From an uncultured Planctomycetia bacterium (lineage in GTDB: Bacteria > Omnitrophota > Gorgyraeia > Pluralincolimonadales > Pluralincolimonadaceae), in contig CAZYUB010000010.1 of the NCBI GenBank assembly GCA_964650515.1, positions 12,938 to 76,937 of the forward strand: a stretch of DNA of 64,000 bases, read 5' to 3'. Positions 2,115 through 53,569 of the stretch are shown one piece after another. The position numbers and the translations under genes were made by a program. Every line of letters begins with the position of its first letter. Position 1 is the stretch's first letter. Below the pieces are notes generated by a model. The model saw nothing but the letters and a program-made list of their open reading frames with translations, searched no databases and was not told where the DNA came from.

Positions 2115-2999
2115 TTATCCCTTTACGCCGGTAAGCTTTATGGATTCCACGAAGTAACGCTGTGTGAAGATGAATATAATGACGATCGGGAGCATCGCCA
2201 TCACCGAGCCGGCCATAAGGTAGTGCCAGTCGGTGGAGTATTGCGTCTTGAACGATTCAAGCCCTATCGGCAGGGTCCTCATATGCATCGAGTTCGTGAC
2301 GAGCAGGGGCCACATGAAAGAGCCCCAGTTGCCCATGAACGTGAATACCGTAAGCGTCGCGAGGGCCGGTTTCGAAAGCGGCAGTATTATCGTCGTATAG
2401 ATGCGGAAGAACCCGCATCCGTCTATCTTAGCTGCGTCCTCGAGGTCCTTCGGCAGCGTCATGAAGAACTGCCTCAGCATGAACGTGCCGTATGCCGAGA
2501 ATATCGCGGGAATTATAAGCGCCTTGAAGGTATCCACCCACCCGAAAAGCCGCATAAGGACATAGACCGGTATCATGGTGACCGAGCCGGGTATCATCAT
2601 CGTCGCGAGGTACGCGAAGAAGAGCTTGTCCCTGCCCCTGAACTCGAGGCGCGAGAAGGCGTATGCCGCTAGCGAACTCGTGAATACCTGCCCCACCGTG
2701 ACCGCTACGCCGACAATTATCGAATTCATGTAGAATTTCGCGAACGGCACCACCTTGAATGCCGATACGTAATTGTCCCAGATGAACATCGTCGGGATGA
2801 ACATCTGTATCCAGTTCTTCGGGCGTATATATATCGCGTCGAGCGTCTTCAGCGAGGTCGTTATCATCCAGAGGAACGGCATTATCATCGAGAGCGCACC
2901 GATGGCAAGCACCGCATAAGCGAAGGCCTGCATCGCCTTCTCCCTCTGCGCCGCTTCGCTTAAGTGGGCCTTGTCCCCGTACCGCCTTCTGTTATCCAT
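2115..2999 (-). CDS. carbohydrate ABC transporter permease (MalG-like, CUT1)
   Basis: EAA loop ...LEDAAKIDGCGFFRIYTTIILPLSKPAL and six TM segments. The start was moved to the internal Met at 2999 (MDNRRRY...), which has an AAAGGG RBS, instead of the 3050 ORF start that overlaps the upstream permease. Confidence 0.75.
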   Translation of the reverse strand: MDNRRRYGDKAHLSEAAQREKAMQAFAYAVLAIGALSMIMPFLWMITTSLKTLDAIYIRPKNWIQMFIPTMFIWDNYVSAFKVVPFAKFYMNSIIVGVAVTVGQVFTSSLAAYAFSRLEFRGRDKLFFAYLATMMIPGSVTMIPVYVLMRLFGWVDTFKALIIPAIFSAYGTFMLRQFFMTLPKDLEDAAKIDGCGFFRIYTTIILPLSKPALATLTVFTFMGNWGSFMWPLLVTNSMHMRTLPIGLESFKTQYSTDWHYLMAGSVMAMLPIVIIFIFTQRYFVESIKLTGVKG

Positions 3000-3009
3000 C
3001 TGCCGCCCT

Positions 3010-3951
3010 TTAATAGTGGACCAGTTTCCCGCCGAATCTCCAGTTGACAAGCGAGACGACGAATATGACCATGAAGAGGAACCAAGCTATCGCCGCCGCG
3101 TAGCCGACGTTCTGCCATGTATAGAGGTTATTGAAGATATAATATTCTATAGTCGTGGTGGCGCCGCCGGGGCCGCCGCCCGTCATTATATACGCCTGCA
3201 TGAAACCGCCCTGGAAACCTCCGATGATGCTCATGATGGCTATGAAGAACGTCGTTGGGCTTATCTGCGGCCATGTGATCGCCCAGAACTTCTGCCACCC
3301 GTTCGCGCCGTCTATCTCGGCCGCCTCGTAGAAGTCCCTCGGTATGCCCTGCAGCGCGGCAAGGTAGAGTATCATGTTCATGCCGCCTATCGCTATCCAG
3401 AAATTCATCAGCATTAGCGCCGGCTTCGCCCATCCCGGCGAATTAAGCCACAGCGGGCCCTGTAAACTGAACCCGAGCATTTTCCCGCCCCAGTATATTA
3501 TGTTGTTCAGCATGCCGTATTCGGGATTGAATATCCAGAGCCAGAGTATCGATATCGCGACGCCGGGGCATATCGACGGCAGGAAGAATATCGTCCTGAA
3601 CATCGACTCGCCGCGGACCTTGCGGTTCAGCGCTATAGCAAGCCCTAGCGAGGCCATCATGCATACCGGTATCGAGAACATCAAAAAGACCGTGTTCCAG
3701 AGGTACTGCCAGAATTTCGGGTCGTTCGCGACTATATGGCCCTGGGTTGCGGCGTCCCTGTGGAAACCGAGAAGCTGGGAGAAATTCTCGAATCCGATGA
3801 ATTGAGGGGCGGTCAGGATGTCCCACTTGAAAAAACTAAGTACAAGGGAGATAAAGACCGGGATGAAAGTGAATACCATAAAACCAATAAGGTTCGGCGC
3901 GAGGAACCCGTACGCCGCTATGGTCTCTTTTGTCCTGGCTTTAATGCGCAT
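3010..3951 (-). CDS. carbohydrate ABC transporter permease (MalF-like, CUT1)
   Basis: EAA loop YEAAEIDGANGWQKFWAITWPQISP in a multi-TM permease. No cognate binding protein or ATPase is adjacent. Confidence 0.8.
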   Translation of the reverse strand: MRIKARTKETIAAYGFLAPNLIGFMVFTFIPVFISLVLSFFKWDILTAPQFIGFENFSQLLGFHRDAATQGHIVANDPKFWQYLWNTVFLMFSIPVCMMASLGLAIALNRKVRGESMFRTIFFLPSICPGVAISILWLWIFNPEYGMLNNIIYWGGKMLGFSLQGPLWLNSPGWAKPALMLMNFWIAIGGMNMILYLAALQGIPRDFYEAAEIDGANGWQKFWAITWPQISPTTFFIAIMSIIGGFQGGFMQAYIMTGGGPGGATTTIEYYIFNNLYTWQNVGYAAAIAWFLFMVIFVVSLVNWRFGGKLVHY

Positions 3952-5386: not shown

Positions 5387-6100
5387 CTATTTTCGAAGAT
5401 TCTGGTGGTGCTTCTTCAGTTCTCCCTCTATATGGTTTATCTCATCCTGAAGGCGGTCGAGCAGCTGCGCCAGCGGGTCGGGCAGGTTCGAATGGTCGAG
5501 CCGTATTCCCGGGATATCCTTGCCTTCCTTCTTCACGACCCTTCCGGGCACGCCGACTACCGTCGAATCCGCAGGGACATCCTTGATCACGACCGCGTTC
5601 GCGCCTACCATAACGCCATCGCCGACCTTTATGTTCCCGAGCACTTTCGCTCCCGCGCCGACCACTACGTTATTTCCGAGCGTCGGATGGCGCTTCCCTT
5701 TTTCCTTGCCGGTCCCGCCGAGCGTCACCCCCTGGAAGAGCGTGACGTTATCTCCGATGACCGATGTCTCGCCTATCACGACGCCCATCCCGTGGTCGAT
5801 AAAAAGGCCCTTTCCTATCGTCGCTCCCGGGTGTATCTCGATGCCGGTGGCGAACCTCCCGAACTGCGAGAGCATCCTCGGCAGCATCGGCACCTTCGCG
5901 GAATAGAGAGCGTGCGCTATCCGGTAATATATGATAGCGTGCAGGCCCGAATAAAGGAGTATTACCTCGAAACCGCTCTTCGCGGCCGGGTCGCGCTCGA
6001 ATATCGCGTTTATCTCGGTCCTGAACACCAGCGAGATCACGAGCATCTTGACGAGCGCGATTATAGCGAGCAAAAGCGCGATTATTATGAATATCTGCAT
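5387..6100 (-). CDS. cysE: serine O-acetyltransferase with an N-terminal hydrophobic extension
   Basis: Hexapeptide-repeat core with [33 protein letters not shown]. It sits next to cysS. A strong GAGGAGA RBS precedes the 6100 start, so the TM-like N-terminus ([17 protein letters not shown]) may be real. Confidence 0.8.
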
Positions 6101-27855: not shown

Positions 27856-28533
27856 TCATTTCTTCGCCTGTTCTACAAGCTTACGGACTTCCTCTATCGA
27901 GGAAGTCGAGCCGCCTACCTGCTTACCTTTCCTGTCAAACACCCGTATGTTAGGTACGGACTGTATGCCGTATTTCACGCAGACAGGTGTCCCCCAGTTG
28001 ACAATATCTATCTTCCTGAGCACGACGTCGGGGTCCGATTTCGCGAGTTCCTCCAATTTCGGCGCTATCGCCTTGCAGGGCCCGCACCATTCTGCGTAGA
28101 AATCAACGATGTTGACCTTGCCGGGCTCAAGCAGCAGCGCAAGGTCAACGTCAGCGCCTCCTTTTGAGACGACGGCCATATCGGCTATCAGCTTGATATC
28201 CTCGACGCTCTGCATGAATATCCTCTGCTCTGGGCCCGAATCACACCTGAATACAAGCACGCCGTGCGAAAGATAAGCGGGTGTGCAGGACAGCTGTTTA
28301 TTGCCTTTGAGGCGGATATTCGCCTTCTTGATGGCGGAAAACTCGAGCTTGTCCACCTGCGTCATTTTATATTTCTTTTCGGCGCCTTCTGTCGCGGCGA
28401 ATGTGACCGAATTCTTGTCGATCGCGACTACGTTGCCGTCTATTTTCTTATTGCCGAGGAGCGTCAGTGTATCCGCCCGCGCGGGGGACGGCAACAGCAA
28501 AATAAACGAAATGACGCACAGGATCTTGTTCAT
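27856..28533 (-). CDS. secreted thioredoxin-like protein
   Basis: Signal peptide (MNKILCVISFILLLPSPARA) and a C-terminal thioredoxin fold with WCGPC. The start is the internal Met at 28533, which has an AGGAAGGGAG RBS; the 28791 ORF start adds an Arg-rich spurious leader. Confidence 0.7.
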   Translation of the reverse strand: MNKILCVISFILLLPSPARADTLTLLGNKKIDGNVVAIDKNSVTFAATEGAEKKYKMTQVDKLEFSAIKKANIRLKGNKQLSCTPAYLSHGVLVFRCDSGPEQRIFMQSVEDIKLIADMAVVSKGGADVDLALLLEPGKVNIVDFYAEWCGPCKAIAPKLEELAKSDPDVVLRKIDIVNWGTPVCVKYGIQSVPNIRVFDRKGKQVGGSTSSIEEVRKLVEQAKK

Positions 28534-28847
28534 ATGCTCCCTTCCTTTTCGAGTGATAATAACAGCCTCTTCAGGGGGATGCCGTAAGCGTAACCGCCGA
28601 TATCGCCGCCGGAGGCGACGATGCGGTGGCAGGGGATTATGAGAGGCCACGGGTTGCGGTGGAGCGCCTGCGCGACGGCGCGTGTCGCCTTTGGATTGCC
28701 TATCTTCCCGGCGACCCACGCGTATGTGCGCGTCTCGCCGGAGGGTATCTTCATTATGCATTCGTAGACGCTTATCTCGAACGCGGTGCACCCGTCAAAC
28801 AGGGCGGACTTTTTTGCGGACTGTGCCTTTCCTTTTTTTTGTTTCAC
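28530..28847 (-). CDS. ogt: methylated-DNA--protein-cysteine methyltransferase DNA-binding/active-site domain (Ogt/MGMT, C-domain only)
   Basis: PCHRIV active-site motif within NPKATRAVAQALHRNPWPLIIPCHRIVASGGDIGGY. GTG start at 28847, immediately after an A8 tract, overlapping the uvrC-like 3' end in the +1 frame. Confidence 0.75.
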   Translation of the reverse strand: MKQKKGKAQSAKKSALFDGCTAFEISVYECIMKIPSGETRTYAWVAGKIGNPKATRAVAQALHRNPWPLIIPCHRIVASGGDIGGYAYGIPLKRLLLSLEKEGSI

Positions 28848-30084
28848 CTACAAGCGCCTTTCGCCTTAATATGTGGTGGTACCTTATCGCGAACCTGTGC
28901 GATTCGTCGCGGACCCGCTGGATAAGCTGCAGCGCTTTCGATGAAGGCGGCAGCGCTATCGGCAGGGCCTTATCCAAAGTATATATGTGCTCAAACACTT
29001 TTGCAAGCCCTATCATGGGGATCTTCTCCAAACCGAGCGCTTTCGTCTCGACAGCGGCCGAAGAGAGGTGCCCGCGCCCGCCGTCGATCAGTATGAGGTC
29101 CGGCAGGGCATCGCTGCGCTTCAGCACTCCGCTGTAACGCCGGCGGACTATCTCGCGCATCATGGCGTAGTCGTCCTGCCCTTCCACTTCTTTTATCCTG
29201 AACATCCTGTAATTCGATTTGTCCGGGCGGCCGTCTTTGAATGATACCATCGAGCCGCAGGCGTTCTCGCCCTTGATATTCGAGATGTCGAACGCCTCGA
29301 TGCGCCGCGGCAGCGATTGCATGCCGAGGACCTCGGCCAGTTCGGAAAGGCCCTGCGCGCCGGACGCGGCCCCCGCCCTCTTATGGACAGCGGTGCTGAG
29401 CGCCTCTATCTGGTTGCGAATCTCCGCCGCTTCCTCGAACCGCTTTTCGGCGGAGTATTCTTTCATCTTAGCGGTCAGCCGCCTGATCAGCTCGCTTTTC
29501 TTCCCCTCGATGAAGAGTATCACTTCTTTTATCCTGCCGGCGTAATCCTCTTTCGATATCTTTCCCTCGCACGGCGCGGAGCAGAGCCCGAGGTCGTCGT
29601 AGACGCACGCCCTTTTGGGTGATTTGGAACACGTGCGGAACATGAATATCCGGCGTATCGCCTTGACCGCCTCATGCAAAAGTGTCGCGTCGGTATACGG
29701 CCCGAAATATATCGAGCCGTCGCTCTTTTTGCCGCGTGCGACCATGACGCGCGGGAAGTCGTCGGACATGGTTATCTTGATGAGCGGGTAGGTCTTGCTG
29801 TCACGGAGTTCGACGTTGTATTTCGGCTGGTATTCCTTGATAAGGTTTGATTCGTAGAGCAGCGCCTCGGCTTCCGTCGCTGTCGTCACATGGTCTATAT
29901 CGCGTATCTTTTCTACAAGCGCCTCTATCCTCGGCCCGTGGTCCTTCGAGCGCCGGAAATACGAGCGGACCCTGTCGCGCAGCGAGGACGCCTTGCCGAC
30001 GTAAAGGACCTTCCCGTCGCCGTCCTTGAAGATATAAACACCTGGCCGTAACGGGAGGCCGCTTACCTTCTCCTTGAGATCCAT
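28795..30084 (-). CDS. uvrC: excinuclease ABC subunit C homolog lacking the C-terminal (HhH)2 domain
   Basis: GIY-YIG (GVYIFKDGDGKVLYVGKA), UVR (KRFEEAAEIRNQIEAL) and RNaseH-like endonuclease (IEAFDISNIKGE...DESHRFAI) domains. The ORF stops at ...RFAIRYHHILRRKALVGETKKRKGTVRKKVRPV, exactly where the HhH module begins in canonical UvrC. Confidence 0.8.
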   Translation of the reverse strand: MDLKEKVSGLPLRPGVYIFKDGDGKVLYVGKASSLRDRVRSYFRRSKDHGPRIEALVEKIRDIDHVTTATEAEALLYESNLIKEYQPKYNVELRDSKTYPLIKITMSDDFPRVMVARGKKSDGSIYFGPYTDATLLHEAVKAIRRIFMFRTCSKSPKRACVYDDLGLCSAPCEGKISKEDYAGRIKEVILFIEGKKSELIRRLTAKMKEYSAEKRFEEAAEIRNQIEALSTAVHKRAGAASGAQGLSELAEVLGMQSLPRRIEAFDISNIKGENACGSMVSFKDGRPDKSNYRMFRIKEVEGQDDYAMMREIVRRRYSGVLKRSDALPDLILIDGGRGHLSSAAVETKALGLEKIPMIGLAKVFEHIYTLDKALPIALPPSSKALQLIQRVRDESHRFAIRYHHILRRKALVGETKKRKGTVRKKVRPV

Positions 30085-31610
30085 CTTACCGCACCCTTGA
30101 ATTCTTCGACCTTCAGGACGACGCAGGCGGCAAGGAACACCGCGATGCCGGCGGCGACCATCACCGCTACCTTCGCGACCGGGCGCATCATCATATTCGC
30201 GTCAAGCAGGAGTAATACGGCCGCCATGGCCGCTGAGGCCGCCAATACGCGCAGGAACGAATCTATTACCGGCCCCGCGCCGAGATGCCCTATCTTCTTC
30301 CCGAGCATTGAGACAAGCATGAAGAAGTTCGCGATGCTAGCGAGGGATGTGGCCAGAGCGAGGCCCCCGACCTTCAGCGGGAACATCAACGCGACATTCA
30401 ATACGATATTTATCACTAGCGCGGCGGCCGCGGCCTTTACCGGCGTCTTCGTGTCCTTAAGCGAGTAGAACGCCGATACGAGTATCTTGACCCCCGCGTA
30501 AGCGAAAAGCCCTATTGAATAGAACAGCAGCGCGTCCGCGGTTATCCGCGTCGAGTAGCTGTCGAACGAGCCCCTCTCGAAGAGCGCGCGGACAATCGGG
30601 TTGGCTAGCACTATCAGCCCGACGGACGAGGGCACCGTTATGAAGAAGACCGAGCGCAGCGAGAACGAGAGCGTCTGCTTGAACTTCTCTATGTCCTCCT
30701 TCGCGGCGTGTTCCGACATCGTCGGCAGCATCGCCTGCGAGAAAGCGGTCCCGAATATCGCGAGCGGCAGCATCCATAACCTGTTCGAATAATATATGGC
30801 GGCGATCGCCCCCTCGCCGACTATCGACGAGAGCGAAGCGAGTATCGTATTGACGAAGACATTCACCTGGTAGATGCTGGCGCCAATCACGCGCGGGACG
30901 AGCAGCCGTCCGACTTCCGCGGCGCCCGGATGCCTGAACCTGTCGAGCCGGGGGAACGCGAGCCCCCTCGAAGCGAGCTGCGGCACCTGGACCGACAGCT
31001 GCAGCACCCCTCCGGCGAGCACGCCCAACGCGAGGCCCATGACGGGCACCTGCATCACAGGGCAAAGCCATAACGCGGCCGCTATGAAGACGATGTTCCA
31101 GAGCGGCTGGCTGAACGCCGACGCCCCGAATAGTTTGAGCGAGTTCAGGATGCCGGTCGTATAGGCGGTAAGCCCGACAAGGAATATATAAGGGAACATC
31201 CAGCGTGTCAGCTCGACTGTGATGCGGAACTTCTCGGGGTCCTTGACGAAGCCGGGCGCTATCAGCGCGACTATCGCCGGGGTAAAAGCCATGCCGAGCG
31301 CCGTTACCGCGGCAAGGACTACTATCATCACGTTGAGCAGGGCCTGAGCGAGCCCCCAGAACTCCTCCTTGGTCTTCTTGACGGCATAAGAGCTCAAAAC
31401 CGGCACGAAGGCGGCGTTGGCGGCTCCCTCGCCTACGAGGTCGCGGAGCATGTTCGGTATCCTGAAAGCGACGACGAACGCCTGCAGCGGCACCGAGGTG
31501 CCGAATACGGCTGCTATGATTATGTCCCGGACGAAGCCGAGGATACGGCTCGCCGATATGCCGAGGCCGATGATCCCGGCCGATTTTGCCAGCGATTTAT
31601 GAGTTGACAT
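30063..31610 (-). CDS. murJ: lipid II flippase MurJ
   Basis: MviN/MurJ N-terminus (AGIIGLGISASRILGFVRDIIIAAVFGTS) and ~14 TM segments. 515 aa. Confidence 0.85.
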   Translation of the reverse strand: MSTHKSLAKSAGIIGLGISASRILGFVRDIIIAAVFGTSVPLQAFVVAFRIPNMLRDLVGEGAANAAFVPVLSSYAVKKTKEEFWGLAQALLNVMIVVLAAVTALGMAFTPAIVALIAPGFVKDPEKFRITVELTRWMFPYIFLVGLTAYTTGILNSLKLFGASAFSQPLWNIVFIAAALWLCPVMQVPVMGLALGVLAGGVLQLSVQVPQLASRGLAFPRLDRFRHPGAAEVGRLLVPRVIGASIYQVNVFVNTILASLSSIVGEGAIAAIYYSNRLWMLPLAIFGTAFSQAMLPTMSEHAAKEDIEKFKQTLSFSLRSVFFITVPSSVGLIVLANPIVRALFERGSFDSYSTRITADALLFYSIGLFAYAGVKILVSAFYSLKDTKTPVKAAAAALVINIVLNVALMFPLKVGGLALATSLASIANFFMLVSMLGKKIGHLGAGPVIDSFLRVLAASAAMAAVLLLLDANMMMRPVAKVAVMVAAGIAVFLAACVVLKVEEFKGAVRWISRRR

Positions 31611-41732: not shown

Positions 41733-41808
41733 TGGTGGAGCTGAGGGGGATCGAACCCCTTACCTCCTGCATGCCATGCAGGCGCTCTCCCAGGTGAGCT
41801 ACAGCCCC
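41733..41808 (-). tRNA. tRNA-Ala (anticodon GGC)
   Basis: Hand-folded cloverleaf: 7-bp acceptor stem with G3:U70 (alanine identity), anticodon loop AUGGCAU, T-arm GGGGTTCGATCCCC, encoded CCA. 76 nt. Confidence 0.9.
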
Positions 41809-43522: not shown

Positions 43523-43609
43523 GCCGGGGTGTTGGAACTGGCATACAAGTCAGTCTCAAAAACTGATGTCCGTAAGGGCATGAGGGTTCAACTCCCTCCC
43601 CCGGCACCA
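43523..43609 (+). tRNA. tRNA-Leu (anticodon CAA), long-variable-arm class
   Basis: Hand-folded: 7-bp GC-rich acceptor stem (GCCGGGG/CCCCGGC), anticodon loop CUCAAAA, 15-nt variable stem-loop, T-arm GAGGGTTCAACTCCCTC, encoded CCA. 87 nt. Confidence 0.88.
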
Positions 43610-47760: not shown

Positions 47761-48384
47761 TTATAGTAGACGTTTCTTTTCGAGTTTTTCTTTCAGGTTT
47801 TTTTTCGCCCGCGCGACAATCGTGGAGACCGTGTTCACCGGGAGCCCAAGGGCCGCAGATATCTGCGCGTGCTTCATCCCGTGCAGCAGGCTCATCCCGG
47901 CGGCCATCCTCTCTTTCGGGCTGAGCCCTTCTATCGCCGAAACCAGTTCCGCGCGGGCCTCATTCAGTTGCGCCTGCCTGTCCGGGCCGGCCGCGGCGGA
48001 AGGCAGGACATCCTCGAGCGTCCTGCCGTCGTCTTCTTTGTATATCTGCTCATATAATGATACGGATGACGGGGGGCTTTGCCTCCTCGCCCTCCTGAAA
48101 TGCTCTATAGCCGCGTTGCCCGCGACCATCGCGAGCCACCCCGCGACCTTTCCGGGCTCCCTGAGCTGGCTTAACTTGCCGCCGGCCCATAAAGCGACAA
48201 AGACATCCTGGTGGATGTCGTTGATGTCTTCCTCGCTATGTTCGTATCCGTAACGCCTGAGCCGGTCGCGTATAGCCCAATAGACCACCTTCGAATACCT
48301 TTCGACGAACGCGTCCCACGATCTCCTGTCCTTCCTTATGCAGCCGAGCACCAGTTCTTCGGGATTTTCGTTCGGGTCCATCAC
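47761..48384 (-). CDS. RNA polymerase sigma factor, ECF subfamily
   Basis: Sigma-70 region 2 (DINDIHQDVFVALW) and region 4 HTH (ERMAAGMSLLHGMKHAQISAALGLPVNTVSTIVARAKKNLKE). 207 aa. Confidence 0.85.
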   Translation of the reverse strand: MMDPNENPEELVLGCIRKDRRSWDAFVERYSKVVYWAIRDRLRRYGYEHSEEDINDIHQDVFVALWAGGKLSQLREPGKVAGWLAMVAGNAAIEHFRRARRQSPPSSVSLYEQIYKEDDGRTLEDVLPSAAAGPDRQAQLNEARAELVSAIEGLSPKERMAAGMSLLHGMKHAQISAALGLPVNTVSTIVARAKKNLKEKLEKKRLL

Positions 48385-50030: not shown

Positions 50031-52373
50031 TTATATTCTATCAGAAATCCTGGGACGTGTCCAATGGGGACGTGTCACTTGGGGACAGGTCTTACCGTTA
50101 ATGAACACCTTCCCTTTCGTCACTTTGATATCATACTGCTTGCCACGGAAGGAGCGCTTCATCGTGAACCCGTCCCATGAGGAGGGAAGGCGCGGATCTA
50201 CCGTCAGCCCGTCGAGCGTAGCGCGCACGCCGAGTATCCAGTCGGTAAAGGCGCGGAACATCCACGCGGACGTCCCGGTAAGCCATGAATGGCTCCCGCG
50301 GCCGAATTGCGGGTGGTCGGGGCCGAAGAGGAACTGGCTGTAGACATACGGCTCGACCCTGTAGGTCTCCGCGCCGGCTTTCTTCGCGGCGACGGCCGGA
50401 AGCAGCTTGCGGTAATAGCCGAACGCCCTGTCCGCGCGGCCGAGCATCGCCTCGGCGATCACCGCCCAGGTATTCGCGTGGCAGAATATCGCGCCGTTCT
50501 CCTTTATGCCCGCCGGATAGTTGATCAGCGAGCCGATATCGTCCGGGCCGCTCGTATAGGAAGGCCAGCATATCCTGATGCCGAGGTCCGTATCGAGGTA
50601 TTTCCTGACGGCGTCCATGCATTTGATGCCGCGCGCGCGGCCAGCGACACCGCTCAATACCGCCCAGCTCTGCGTGTTTATATGTATCTTCCCCTCCTCG
50701 CATTCCTTCGAGCCGACGGGCCGCCCGTCGTCGGTAAAAGCCCGTATATACCATTCGCCGTCCCAGGCGGTATAGTTTATCCGCTGCTTCATTTCGTCGT
50801 ATATCTTCGTGAAGTTCTTCGCGTCCCTGGTCTTCTCCATCTTCGCAGCCAGTTCGGCCATCTGCCTCGCGGTATAGCAAAGGAACATCGCGACCCATAC
50901 CGATTCGCCCCTGCCTTTCCTGTCGATGTCGTTGAGGCAGTCGTTCCAGTCCGCGTAGAACATCCTCGGCAGGCCGTGCGGCCCGCAGTTCGCGAGCGTA
51001 TAATTTACCGCCCGGACCATATGCTCGTAGATCGTCCCGCAGGACCCCTCGATATACGGGGCCTTATCCTCAAGCACGGAGTAATCGCCTGTCTCGCAGA
51101 TATACGAGTATACGGCCGGGATCATCCAGAGGTGGTCATCGGAATATTTCTTCGGTTCGCCGGTGCCTACCGTCGGGTAGAAGAGGTGGTACGCGTGCCC
51201 GTCCTCGTACATGTTCTTCGCGAGCAGTTTTATCTTATCCTTCACCTGCGGCGCTATCGCGTGGACGACGCCGAGCGTGTCCTGGCTCGTGTCCCTGAAG
51301 CCGATGCCGCGGCCGGTGCCCGTGTTATACATTAGCGACGCGTAACGCGACCAGTCGAACGTAGTCCTCGACTGGTACTGGTTCCATATATTTATGTTCG
51401 CATTGACCGCGGGGTCCGGCGTCTCGATTATCAGCTTCGACGTATACTCCTCCCAGTATTTTTTGACGCGCTCGAGCTCATGAGCTACATGGCTTTCGTC
51501 CGAGTACTTCCGCAATATCCTGTCCGGTGTCAGCTTGTTCTCATACGCGTCGACGCCGAGGACGACCGTTACCTCCTTCCGCTCCCCGGGCTTGAGCTCG
51601 AGGCGCACCGAGAGCGCGCCTATCACGTTCCCGCCGATGACCTTTGAACATTTATGCCTGCCGGATTTCACCGCTTCCGGGTTTGTCTCGCTGCGGTACT
51701 TGCCGATGAAAGCTTCCCTCTCGCAATCGTAACCCCGGACTGCCCGGTTGGTGACGGCGAAGAACACCCTGGAAAAGTTACGCTTAAAATATCCCTTTTT
51801 CTTGTTGTAAAAAGAATAGTATATAGCCTTGTCGCGGCTGTCGTATTCGGCCATGGAGAAATAGTGGAGGTTCGGATGGAACATGAACTCCTCAGACGCG
51901 TCGAAGAGCGCGAACTCAACGTACGGCGTGGCCGTTATGGAGCGTTTCTCCTTTCCGGAATTCGTTATTACGGCGGACCACACTTCGATGTTGTCATCCA
52001 ACGGCACGAAATAAGTGACCTCGCTGGTTATTTTTTTGCTCTCGGAGGATATCTTCGTGTATCCGAGGCCGTGCCTGCACTCCCACGCGTCCGGCGCCTT
52101 GCAGACGGGCTGCCAGCCGGCGGACCAGTATTCCCCCGTCTCCGCGTCCCTGAGGTATACGTACCTGCCGGGCCTGTCGAGAGGCACGTTATTGTACCTG
52201 TACCTCGTTATGCGCTGGTACTTGGGGTCCTCAAAGAAACTGTAACCGCCCCCGGTCTGCGATATCAGCGCCGCGTACTTGCCGTTGCAGAGGTAATTTA
52301 TCCACGGCGTCGGCGTATCGAACCTGTTTATTATGAACTCCTTCCTGTCCCTCGAGAACCCGCCGTAATCCAT
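50031..52373 (-). CDS. GH94-family glycoside phosphorylase (cellobiose/cellodextrin phosphorylase-like)
   Basis: N-terminus (FDTPTPWINYLCNGKYAALISQTGGGYSFFEDPKYQRITRYRYNNVP) closely resembles cellobiose phosphorylase as I recall it. 780 aa. The C-terminal ~22 aa are encoded by the repeat element. Confidence 0.78.
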   Translation of the reverse strand: MDYGGFSRDRKEFIINRFDTPTPWINYLCNGKYAALISQTGGGYSFFEDPKYQRITRYRYNNVPLDRPGRYVYLRDAETGEYWSAGWQPVCKAPDAWECRHGLGYTKISSESKKITSEVTYFVPLDDNIEVWSAVITNSGKEKRSITATPYVEFALFDASEEFMFHPNLHYFSMAEYDSRDKAIYYSFYNKKKGYFKRNFSRVFFAVTNRAVRGYDCEREAFIGKYRSETNPEAVKSGRHKCSKVIGGNVIGALSVRLELKPGERKEVTVVLGVDAYENKLTPDRILRKYSDESHVAHELERVKKYWEEYTSKLIIETPDPAVNANINIWNQYQSRTTFDWSRYASLMYNTGTGRGIGFRDTSQDTLGVVHAIAPQVKDKIKLLAKNMYEDGHAYHLFYPTVGTGEPKKYSDDHLWMIPAVYSYICETGDYSVLEDKAPYIEGSCGTIYEHMVRAVNYTLANCGPHGLPRMFYADWNDCLNDIDRKGRGESVWVAMFLCYTARQMAELAAKMEKTRDAKNFTKIYDEMKQRINYTAWDGEWYIRAFTDDGRPVGSKECEEGKIHINTQSWAVLSGVAGRARGIKCMDAVRKYLDTDLGIRICWPSYTSGPDDIGSLINYPAGIKENGAIFCHANTWAVIAEAMLGRADRAFGYYRKLLPAVAAKKAGAETYRVEPYVYSQFLFGPDHPQFGRGSHSWLTGTSAWMFRAFTDWILGVRATLDGLTVDPRLPSSWDGFTMKRSFRGKQYDIKVTKGKVFINGKTCPQVTRPHWTRPRISDRI
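50052..50091 (-). repeat. triple tandem ~10-bp direct repeat (GACCTGTCCCC / GACACGTCCCC / GACACGTCCC; 15-bp period), copy B, inverted relative to copy A
   Basis: Read from sequence on the minus strand. It lies within the last ~20 codons of the GH94 ORF and is followed by an AGGATTTCT-N12-AGAAATCCT hairpin and the CBM9 gene RBS. Confidence 0.6.
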
Positions 52374-52412: not shown

Positions 52413-52429
52413 ATCAAAAAAAATAACCG

Positions 52430-53569
52430 TTATTTCGGCTTAGCGCTCGATTCCCTTACGACGAGATCGACAGGTATCACCTCTTTCGTCGCGATATTTA
52501 TGCGCCCTTCTATCCTGTCTATGAGCTTCTTAAGCGCTATCGAGCCCATCTCTTCCTTCGGCACGTTAACGGTGGTAAGCGGCGGTGTGGAGAGCGCGGC
52601 CCATTCTATGTTGTCGAAGCCGACGATCGATATGTCGCGCGGTATCGAAAGGCCGCTCTTGTCGCGTATTGCCTTCATCGCGCCCATCGCCGCCTCGTCG
52701 TTTATCGCGAAGACCGCGGTCGGAAGAGGGCTCTTCTTCAATATCTTCTCCATCGCCTTATACCCTTCCTCGACCATGTAGTAGGCCTCTATGACGAGGC
52801 CGTCGTCGTATTTGATACCGGCCTCTTGGAGGGCTTCTTTATAGCCCTCGAGCCTGCCTATCGACGCGGGCTGGTCCTGAAGCGGCGCGCGTATCATCGC
52901 TATGCGTTTGTGGCCGAGGTCCGTAAGGTGCTTCACGGCCAGGTATCCGCCGAGACGGTTGTCGGGTATGACAGAATCAATCGCGGGCTTCGAGATCTCG
53001 TTATCGACGAGGACGAGCGGGAACTTCTTGTCGTAGAGGCTCAGGACCGTCGTACGGTCGAGCCCCCCGATGACGATGATACCGTCGACGTTGTTCTCCA
53101 TCGCCCATCTCGCGATATCGCGCTCATCCTTTACCGATGTCACGAAATTGAACGAGAGCGTGCAGCCCATCCTCAGGGCTTCCTTCTGCATCGTCGAGAA
53201 TATGCCGACGTAGTAAGGGCTTAATATGGGCGATTGCGAGGTCGGGTTAAGGCGCCTCAGTATGCACGCGATGTTCTTGCGCCTCGACTGGCGCTTCATC
53301 GACGAAAAGGCATGGGCTTTCTGCAGCCCTTCCGCGTCCGAGACGAACGTCCCGGTGCCGGGTACGGAATACAGAAAGCCCTCCCTTATCAATTGCGCGA
53401 TGCCGCGCCTTAATGTGATGCGGTTGATCCCATGCTCCTTGCTCAGGATGCGTTCCGAAGGGATAGGTTCCCCGGGCTTGAACTGGCCGGCCTGGACCTG
53501 CTTGCGCAGTATATCGGCGAATTGCTGGTAGAAGAACTTTCCGCTCGACTTGTCCACCTTCGGGCTCAC
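52430..53569 (-). CDS. AraR-like transcriptional regulator (GntR-type wHTH plus LacI/PBP-like sugar-binding domain)
   Basis: N-terminal GntR HTH (PIPSERILSKEHGINRITLRRGIAQLIREGFL). C-terminal periplasmic-binding-protein fold typical of LacI/GalR effector domains. 379 aa. Confidence 0.7.
   Translation of the reverse strand: MSPKVDKSSGKFFYQQFADILRKQVQAGQFKPGEPIPSERILSKEHGINRITLRRGIAQLIREGFLYSVPGTGTFVSDAEGLQKAHAFSSMKRQSRRKNIACILRRLNPTSQSPILSPYYVGIFSTMQKEALRMGCTLSFNFVTSVKDERDIARWAMENNVDGIIVIGGLDRTTVLSLYDKKFPLVLVDNEISKPAIDSVIPDNRLGGYLAVKHLTDLGHKRIAMIRAPLQDQPASIGRLEGYKEALQEAGIKYDDGLVIEAYYMVEEGYKAMEKILKKSPLPTAVFAINDEAAMGAMKAIRDKSGLSIPRDISIVGFDNIEWAALSTPPLTTVNVPKEEMGSIALKKLIDRIEGRINIATKEVIPVDLVVRESSAKPK

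Follow-up and report, generated by a model that had tools for sequence, protein, structure and literature searches.

A UvrC without helix-hairpin-helix domains and its overlapping alkyltransferase gene in Omnitrophota: probably two coupled genes where some relatives carry a single fused protein

Introduction

Does the 3' end of a uvrC gene that runs into an alkyltransferase gene mark the boundary between two proteins, or does it hide the middle of one? The question is raised by a 64,000-nucleotide (nt) stretch of DNA (GenBank contig CAZYUB010000010.1, positions 12,938 to 76,937), referred to here as the window, from an organism that a homologue search with the hypothetical fusion protein as query places in the Omnitrophota. 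On the minus strand of the window, a uvrC gene for a protein of 429 amino acids (aa) (28795..30084) ends with a TGA stop codon at 28795-28797. It overlaps by 53 nt (28795..28847) a 105-aa gene for a single-domain O6-alkylguanine-DNA alkyltransferase (AGT; 28530..28847), which begins with GTG at 28845..28847 and is read in the +1 frame relative to uvrC (frame 0). Within the overlap lies a run of eight adenines in Lys codons (A8; T8 on the plus strand, 28833..28840). An earlier reading made from the letters alone (the sequence-only reading) had described the overlap, its frame and the GTG at 28847, all of which the list of open reading frames (ORFs) confirms. It had also proposed that loss of one A by slippage, a ribosomal shift or a sequencing error would create a fusion of UvrC with the MGMT-type alkyltransferase, and that the alkyltransferase might stand in for the missing pair of helix-hairpin-helix domains, (HhH)2.

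Comparison with relatives indicates that uvrC and the alkyltransferase gene are very likely two separately translated, translationally coupled genes of a tightly packed Omnitrophota operon, murJ-uvrC-mgmt-thioredoxin. Translation of the alkyltransferase gene would start at the GTG near the end of uvrC, and its product would be a free 105-aa suicide alkyltransferase. UvrC would make both incisions without HhH, possibly helped by its basic tail, as would fit the behavior of the truncated Deinococcus radiodurans protein UvrC-delta(HhH)2, and the co-expressed alkyltransferase may serve as a DNA-binding partner, which would fit the true fusions present at the same locus in other Omnitrophota.

Two Overlapping Genes at the uvrC 3' End

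A single UvrC-AGT ORF in the window can be rejected, as the TGA at 28795-28797 ends uvrC and the AGT domain is in the +1 frame. The ORFs are likewise separate in each of the 12 clade genomes and in the 8 close assemblies described below. Thirty-eight protein clusters at 68-99% identity, drawn from NCBI, JGI, ENA and Logan, all have 422-447 aa and contain neither HhH nor an MGMT domain; clusters at approximately 50-67% identity, with 462-497 aa, carry HhH. Twelve species-representative Omnitrophota genomes (L001-L012) have a uvrC without HhH followed by an MGMT ORF in the +1 frame. The alkyltransferase GTG is kept in 11 of these genomes, and L012, which lost it, has an ATG one codon downstream; by this comparison the start codon is either conserved or compensated. 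Directly upstream of the GTG is a TAG stop in the +1 frame (28848-28850, minus strand), and a Shine-Dalgarno-like GAAAGG (28857..28862, minus strand) ends 9 nt before the start codon. The GAAAGG motif is conserved in all clade members, and several clear genes of the window have AAAGG or AAGG at about the same spacing.

The A8 run is where the sequence-only reading placed it. Across the run, the uvrC frame reads ACA AAA AAA AGG. Shortening the run to A7 in silico gives an uninterrupted 517-aa fusion with the junction ...GETKKGKAQSAK..., identical to the one that had been predicted, and A10 gives a fusion of 518 aa. An A9 run, equivalent to a -1 slip, gives a dead-end product of 437 aa which ends in ...KKKERHSPQKSPPCLTGAPRSR and has no AGT domain. 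The two frames are thus fused only by a +1 shift, the loss of 1 nt or the gain of 2 nt. The presence of A8 is not beyond chance: the window contains 3 A8/T8 runs against 1.53 expected, and 23 of 100 shuffled sequences reach 3. The other two runs are at 47798-47805 and 52416-52423, the latter between the ORFs 50031..52373 and 52430..53569.

Homopolymers are error-prone, and deletion of a single base here would restore the fusion, so a true fusion gene could be hidden by an error of sequencing or assembly, or by a frameshift that has recently turned it into a pseudogene. This explanation is exceedingly improbable. Identical A8 runs and the same split are found in 8 independent assemblies from different studies and samples (the window; L002; L100; L168-L170, three Logan runs; L171 and L172, two JGI metagenomes), and A7 is found in none of them. 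The split also occurs with varied junctions in the 12 species-level genomes and in the 38 protein clusters, and the HhH-bearing ancestors already had two overlapping genes. The suspicion of a homopolymer error raised in the sequence-only reading is therefore not upheld.

Programmed recoding, in which A8 slippage with loss of one A or a +1 shift at AAA-AGG regularly yields the fusion, is also very unlikely. The continuous ORFs given by A7 and A10, the stability of A8 in the 8 assemblies of the closest relatives and the existence of fused orthologues, which show that such a product is viable, would all suit this explanation, but the run itself does not persist where the split does. In L001, whose UvrC is 92% identical, the codons are ACA AGA AAA AGG with A5 only (the L001 form of the run is AAGAAAAA); in L003 and L004 the junction reads ACG AAA AGG GAA AAA, and L005-L012 differ again. 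The split and the +1 frame are kept throughout, and A8 is confined to relatives of at least 91% identity and absent in more distant clade members. An A-run that is not conserved had been named in advance as evidence against a shift, and this is what is observed, with the run broken in L001 and lost farther out. Moreover, the overlap and its +1 frame are older than the loss of HhH and came with an ATG start, and other lineages use frames 0 and +2.

The individual recoding mechanisms fare no better. The likeness to dnaX is accurate as far as the slippery heptamer goes, since the X XXY YYZ pattern is present in frame 0 as A AAA AAA within ACA AAA AAA; it fails in that the -1 frame leads to the 437-aa protein without MGMT. 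A -1 frameshift of the dnaX type is rejected on the grounds of the wrong frame, a heptamer that is not conserved and the lack of downstream structure: junction RNA folds no better than shuffled sequences (z=+0.94), with no stimulatory structure, and no Rfam family matches at the junction. A +1 frameshift at AAA-AGG of the prfB or Ty1 type is rejected as the site varies among relatives and AGG, at 40% of Arg codons and 23.8 per 1000, is used more than any other Arg codon in the window; therefore no hungry-codon pause is expected there. Transcriptional slippage as a conserved mechanism is rejected because the run is absent in relatives that need the same frame change. Most reports of efficient slippage concern runs of at least 9, and A8 falls below this length. 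Judged by these alignments, the A8 run is real Lys-coding sequence in a dual-coding stretch, neither an error nor a conserved recoding signal, and in the annotation of the window the two genes should stay separate, without a fusion or recoding.

The Minimal UvrC

The assignment of the 429-aa protein as UvrC comes from the ORF list, Pfam, TIGR00194 and alignments to canonical UvrC and to PDB 3c65/2nrt; its TIGR00194 score of 429.6 bits passes the curated equivalog threshold of 285.45 (NCBIfam). All its domains are encoded on the minus strand. The GIY-YIG nuclease domain for 3' incision (aa 14-90; 29815..30045) matches PF01541 (E=1.2e-8) and PDB 1yd6/1ycz, and the UVR motif, the helix pair that binds UvrB in the Cys-rich/4-helix region (aa 198-230; 29395..29493), matches PF02151 (E=1.4e-10). 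The RNase H-like endonuclease domain for 5' incision (aa 251-400; 28885..29334) matches PF08459 (E=2.2e-53) and aligns to PDB 3c65 (residues 5-171) and 2nrt. The catalytic GIY-YIG residues Y17, Y28, R38, E78 and N90 and the DDH triad D266, D334 and H396 of the RNase H-like domain are invariant in the alignment. By its motifs, the window UvrC is thus predicted to be minimal but catalytically complete.

Two regions of canonical UvrC are missing. No HhH match is found by Pfam in the window UvrC, and the scan that had been proposed agrees with the expected set of GIY-YIG, UVR and RNaseH without HhH in UvrC, and DNA_binding_1 in the small ORF. The protein stops 20 aa past the RNase H domain, whereas relatives and canonical UvrC run on for approximately 55-60 aa. 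Its end coincides with the point where HhH begins in relatives and in the solved C-terminal halves of UvrC, which bears out the claim that the gene terminates where HhH should start. In place of (HhH)2 is a Lys/Arg-rich tail of 20 aa, ALVGETKKRKGTVRKKVRPV (28798..28857, minus strand), delimited by anchored comparison with HhH-bearing sisters. The tail has a net charge of +8 over 16 residues and may add non-specific DNA affinity.

The second missing region is a gap of approximately 135 residues between the UVR motif and the RNase H domain relative to five canonical UvrC proteins. In the window it falls at the linker 29335-29379; it is also present in P0048, P0054 and P0073 and is common to all Omnitrophota sequences aligned. 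By alignment, the gap corresponds to absence of the central, inactive RNase H1 platform domain (residues 243-366 of D. radiodurans UvrC). This platform was called highly conserved in the D. radiodurans UvrC study, from which the domain definition is taken (PMC10085695). The Omnitrophota UvrC proteins that were aligned constitute a phylum-wide minimal UvrC of 410-470 aa. D. radiodurans UvrC-delta(HhH)2 retains UvrB binding and dual incision; its 3' cut is kept and its 5' cut is weakened (PMC10085695). Because this truncated protein still cuts on both sides, a UvrC without HhH is plausibly functional.

The Single-Domain Alkyltransferase

The product of the small gene contains the DNA_binding_1/MGMT domain (PF01035, E=1.1e-29) at aa 23-101 with the motif PCHR (28623-28634, minus strand), and its NCBIfam call is the ogt superfamily (TIGR00589). 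It aligns to residues 74-155 of Mycobacterium tuberculosis OGT, that is, to the whole C-terminal domain with PCHR included. Pfam finds no match to the N-terminal domain PF02870 (Methyltransf_1N), and just 22 residues precede the AGT domain; the extension at the N-terminus is rich in Lys and shares its coding sequence with the uvrC tail. The Methyltransf_1N domain is not strictly needed according to a review (PMC10779285). Identity as an alkyltransferase-like protein (ATL), in which the acceptor Cys is replaced (PWHR or similar), is rejected as the window motif is PCHR; the ATL Atl1 in PDB is a weak match (E=9e-7). The small protein is presumptively a true alkyltransferase, an AGT and not an ATL.

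Origin of the Overlap and Loss of HhH

The HhH-bearing sisters of the window clade indicate which came first. A MAFFT alignment of junction DNA was ambiguous, with VGETKKRK paired to GIGPKRK of the first hairpin, and was replaced by anchoring the junction sequences on the alkyltransferase reading frame. Seven HhH-bearing loci have a +1 overlap of about 44-53 nt with an ATG start. The uvrC stop falls in the same column as in the window clade in six of the seven (L014, L016, L090, L092, L097 and L111). This column reads T-TGA-C or A-TAA-C over the alkyltransferase residues [FY][DN]G, and a stretch resembling AAAAAAGTyC before the stop is common to the window and L014, L016 and L097. The alkyltransferase ATG of the six loci is embedded, as 'A ATG AA', in the codons G[IL][ND]E[KR] of the second HhH hairpin. 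The window counterpart is 'G GTG AA' within ...LVGET..., three codons farther from the anchor. Since the same overlap and an own start are found in HhH-bearing sisters, the overlap predates the loss of HhH.

A rough neighbour-joining (NJ) tree of 116 UvrC cores agrees with this order: the HhH-less clusters P0001-P0038 are monophyletic, and their sister group is P0039-P0045, a clade with HhH in which the alkyltransferase gene overlaps uvrC. The anchored sequences indicate that the window clade arose by an in-frame deletion, in which approximately 40 codons and with them most of (HhH)2 were lost. By the same alignment, the last approximately 17 codons of uvrC are what is left of the final HhH hairpin/helix; they also encode the MGMT N-terminus, and they survived because they already overlapped the alkyltransferase start in the +1 frame. 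One of the sister loci, L014, has a masked stretch (XXXX) in the alkyltransferase ORF (about 5600-5700) and, after it, a duplication of the C-terminal segment; this is probably an artefact of assembly or masking.

Natural Fusions and the uvrC-Alkyltransferase Association

The proposed homology search for UvrC(deltaHhH)-MGMT fusions was successful. Eight clusters (P0044, P0048-P0052, P0058 and P0102), 45-51% identical to the fusion query, align with 97-99% of its length. They are single proteins of 499-538 aa with GIY-YIG, UVR (6 of 8), UvrC_RNaseH and DNA_binding_1, and alignment shows that in each of them an HhH-less UvrC continues in frame into an alkyltransferase that keeps PCHR. P0044 retains the first HhH hairpin only, with MGMT joined directly after it. 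Across the junction and the alkyltransferase part, P0048-P0052 share 70-83% identity with P0048, again with PCHR intact; the NCBI label for P0048 is methyltransferase. The fusion locus is syntenic with the window: L081, part of a 1.43-Mb Omnitrophota chromosome, has BamD-like, LptE, holA, rpsT, murJ and uvrC::mgmt, and the gene order of the window matches it up to uvrC. The fusion that had been suggested thus exists at the syntenic murJ-uvrC locus of other members of the phylum, but the window itself has two genes. P0051 keeps the Met of the former start (…GKR-M-TPFQRRVY), and a coupled pair can therefore become a fusion when a stop codon is lost. On the rough NJ tree, fusions are found in at least three places and loss of HhH in several, and the fusions probably arose several times.

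When 1.84 billion representatives were searched exhaustively with a profile, a single (partial) representative spanned both halves, a count in which the 50% clustering conceals members. A second homologue search, with a junction profile, returned mostly MGMT proteins of approximately 100 aa and three partial fusions and missed the known full-length ones, which makes it unusable as a count. As far as seen, the fusion is rare and confined to Omnitrophota. Other domain arrangements were also encountered: P0241 (666 aa) and P0124 (249 aa) each have two tandem DNA_binding_1 domains, and P0339 (437 aa) has a C-terminal alkyltransferase domain after 340 N-terminal aa without an assigned domain.

Adjacency of the two genes was counted over Omnitrophota-like loci with enough downstream sequence. 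A metagenome scan had added 80 loci, and all loci were annotated with dedicated hidden Markov models for HhH tails and short alkyltransferases. An alkyltransferase gene is adjacent or fused to 49 of 59 HhH-less uvrC genes (not adjacent in 10) and to 13 of 27 HhH-bearing ones (not adjacent in 14), with an odds ratio of 5.3 (Fisher P=0.0015) when loci are treated as independent of phylogeny, the window clade contributing 14 of them. A strict rule that an HhH-less uvrC always neighbours MGMT is rejected by the 10 exceptions, in which uvrC lies directly before prfB, ychF, an M23-like gene or pilT. Other HhH-less lineages have TAAATG, ATGA or GTGA junctions or short gaps, with the alkyltransferase in frame 0, +1 or +2. 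Such ordinary junctions in all three frames favour separate translation.

These patterns bear on why the alkyltransferase gene is there at all. One explanation is streamlining only: HhH, like RNase H1, would have been lost as dispensable in a phylum with reduced genomes, the alkyltransferase would be a mere operon neighbour, and fusions and long overlaps would be by-products of tight gene packing. This is a serious possibility, though it falls short of an even chance. All Omnitrophota UvrC proteins examined lack the approximately 135 aa of RNase H1, overlaps are routine at this locus (murJ/uvrC by 22 nt, mgmt/thioredoxin as ATGA), and the association between HhH and MGMT has exceptions in both directions. 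A run-on of the alkyltransferase into the thioredoxin-domain gene, implausible as a functional fusion, also points this way; it occurs in two independent assemblies of close relatives, L002 (5238-6209) and L172 (downstream of 1585), where the alkyltransferase stop is lost (...LEKALCIVLFLLLLPSFADAD...). Streamlining accounts less readily for the retention of the fusion across the diverged clade P0048-P0052, for a fusion that probably arose more than once, and for the positive association of HhH loss with MGMT.

The other explanation is functional replacement, in which the alkyltransferase domain took over the DNA-binding and lesion-targeting role of (HhH)2, in trans in the window and in cis in fused relatives. 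It would couple O6-alkylguanine reversal with excision, for example of bulky O6 adducts or of alkyltransferase stuck on DNA. Here the true fusions with a short linker at the syntenic locus, their occurrence in at least three places on the rough tree, the 49/59 against 13/27 adjacency and the position of MGMT right after the first HhH hairpin in P0044 are what would be expected, and ATL proteins bind UvrA and UvrC directly (PMC10779285). Replacement nevertheless remains doubtful. Ten HhH-less loci have no neighbouring MGMT (prfB, ychF or M23-like genes instead) and 13 HhH-bearing loci have an adjacent one, the association statistic ignores phylogeny, removal of HhH leaves D. radiodurans UvrC active, and UvrC is generally streamlined in this phylum. 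The suggestion that MGMT associates with, or stands in for, HhH is reasonable, with a conserved partner and real fusions on its side, but the exceptions keep it short of proof. In a wider form, the alkyltransferase would be an accessory or replacement module for DNA binding and lesion targeting of the minimal Omnitrophota UvrC, non-covalent in the window clade and covalent in fused lineages; this is put forward as a rather unlikely, tentative proposal.

Some points weigh against two independently translated, functional genes in the window. GTG with a modest Shine-Dalgarno sequence is a weak start for a free alkyltransferase. In some bacteria such runs can slip, and A8 may give low-level RNA-polymerase slippage and a small fused fraction in this species and its closest relatives. 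The exact end points of the proposed deletion depend on a short, low-complexity alignment, and the proposal presumes a UvrC that works without both RNase H1 and HhH. Separate, coupled translation of uvrC and the alkyltransferase gene is still very probably the correct description of the locus.

Genomic Context and Other Lineages

The two genes are embedded in a compact operon on the minus strand. Upstream, murJ (30063..31610; Pfam MurJ E=6e-119) overlaps the start of uvrC by 22 nt. Downstream, a thioredoxin-domain gene (27856..28533; Pfam Thioredoxin) with a hydrophobic, signal-peptide-like N-terminus has its ATG overlapping the alkyltransferase TGA as ATGA (4 nt). The order BamD-LptE-holA-rpsT-murJ-uvrC is conserved across distant Omnitrophota (window, L081, L084-L087 and L168), as is the murJ/uvrC overlap of approximately 19-22 nt, which is exactly 22 nt in the window, L081, L084, L085, L087 and L168. 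The close relative L171 (93% identical; 2752-3132) is without the thioredoxin-domain gene and has a response-regulator gene directly after the alkyltransferase, with an ATGA overlap. The only matches at the Rfam gathering threshold in the window are two tRNA genes, at 41736-41808 (minus strand) and 43523-43606 (plus strand).

Related arrangements also occur in other phyla. L070 and L071, metagenome-assembled genomes (MAGs) labelled Deferrimicrobiaceae or 'delta proteobacterium', have a UvrC of normal length, approximately 550 aa (ending at 5626), that stops 16 aa past DEAHRFA, with no HhH and no alkyltransferase nearby; loss of HhH is therefore not limited to Omnitrophota. Zixibacteria, Ignavibacteria and Syntrophales MAGs (L024, L036, L041, L066 and L072) have an HhH-bearing uvrC followed by a two-domain ogt. 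Adjacency of uvrC and ogt is sporadic outside Omnitrophota, in a sample that is biased, as one search pattern was derived from the alkyltransferase.

Implications for Nucleotide Excision Repair

Omnitrophota carry a stripped-down UvrC without RNase H1 and often without (HhH)2, and this UvrC usually has an alkyltransferase gene right after it or, in some cases, is fused to the alkyltransferase. Such a minimal UvrC may indicate which domains are truly needed for dual incision. The natural UvrC-alkyltransferase fusions provide 'Rosetta-stone' evidence for the proposed cross-talk between the alkyltransferase fold and bacterial nucleotide excision repair (NER), and they offer a ready-made single polypeptide for biochemical tests of this cross-talk. 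If the alkyltransferase is an accessory or replacement module of UvrC, one machine would physically unite direct reversal with nucleotide excision, and the pair would be a bacterial counterpart, with a catalytic Cys, of the hand-off from ATL to NER.

Comparison with Known Systems

Known recoding sites, namely the -1 shift of dnaX, the +1 shift of prfB and A-run slippage in Thermus dnaX and insertion sequence elements, share with the window an A-rich heptamer or homopolymer where two frames meet. The window site differs from them in that it is in the wrong frame for -1, has no rare or stop codon and no stimulator, and is not conserved. The window also resembles coupled overlapping genes in compact operons, where the downstream start and Shine-Dalgarno sequence lie inside the upstream 3' end, and its neighbouring genes overlap by 22 nt and 4 nt. 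Compared with usual coupled overlaps, the 53-nt out-of-frame overlap in the window is long, and both of its frames are low-complexity and Lys/Arg-rich.

The alkyltransferase shares the PF01035 fold with Ogt, Ada-C and the C-terminal domain of human MGMT, and has PCHR. Compared with these proteins it is without Methyltransf_1N and has a Lys-rich, dual-coded N-terminal extension. It also resembles ATLs (Atl1 and E. coli YbaZ) in being a small AGT-fold protein linked to UvrA/UvrC, and direct binding of ATL to UvrC has been reported (PMC10779285); however, ATLs are without the acceptor Cys (PWHR), whereas the window protein has PCHR.

The AGT C-terminal domain is known to work when fused to repair nuclease or DNA-binding modules, as in archaeal AGT-EndoV, ATL-EndoV, Ada and C. 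elegans AGT-2, the known partners being EndoV, Ada-N and a histone-like domain (PMC10779285). A UvrC-AGT fusion is absent from this review, and no mention of one, or of Omnitrophota UvrC, was found in the searchable literature; the evolutionary pattern is apparently undescribed. In contrast to the known partners, the fusion partner in the relatives of the window is UvrC, the dual nuclease of NER.

The window UvrC resembles canonical UvrC from Thermotoga maritima, Bacillus stearothermophilus and D. radiodurans in its GIY-YIG domain, Cys-rich region, UVR helices and DDH nuclease. It differs in being approximately 190 aa shorter, with no RNase H1 and with a 20-aa basic tail in place of (HhH)2. 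An experimental parallel is D. radiodurans UvrC-delta(HhH)2, in which the C-terminal HhH is missing as well. That protein is a laboratory truncation, whereas the loss in the window is natural and fixed in the clade, where an alkyltransferase gene overlaps uvrC.

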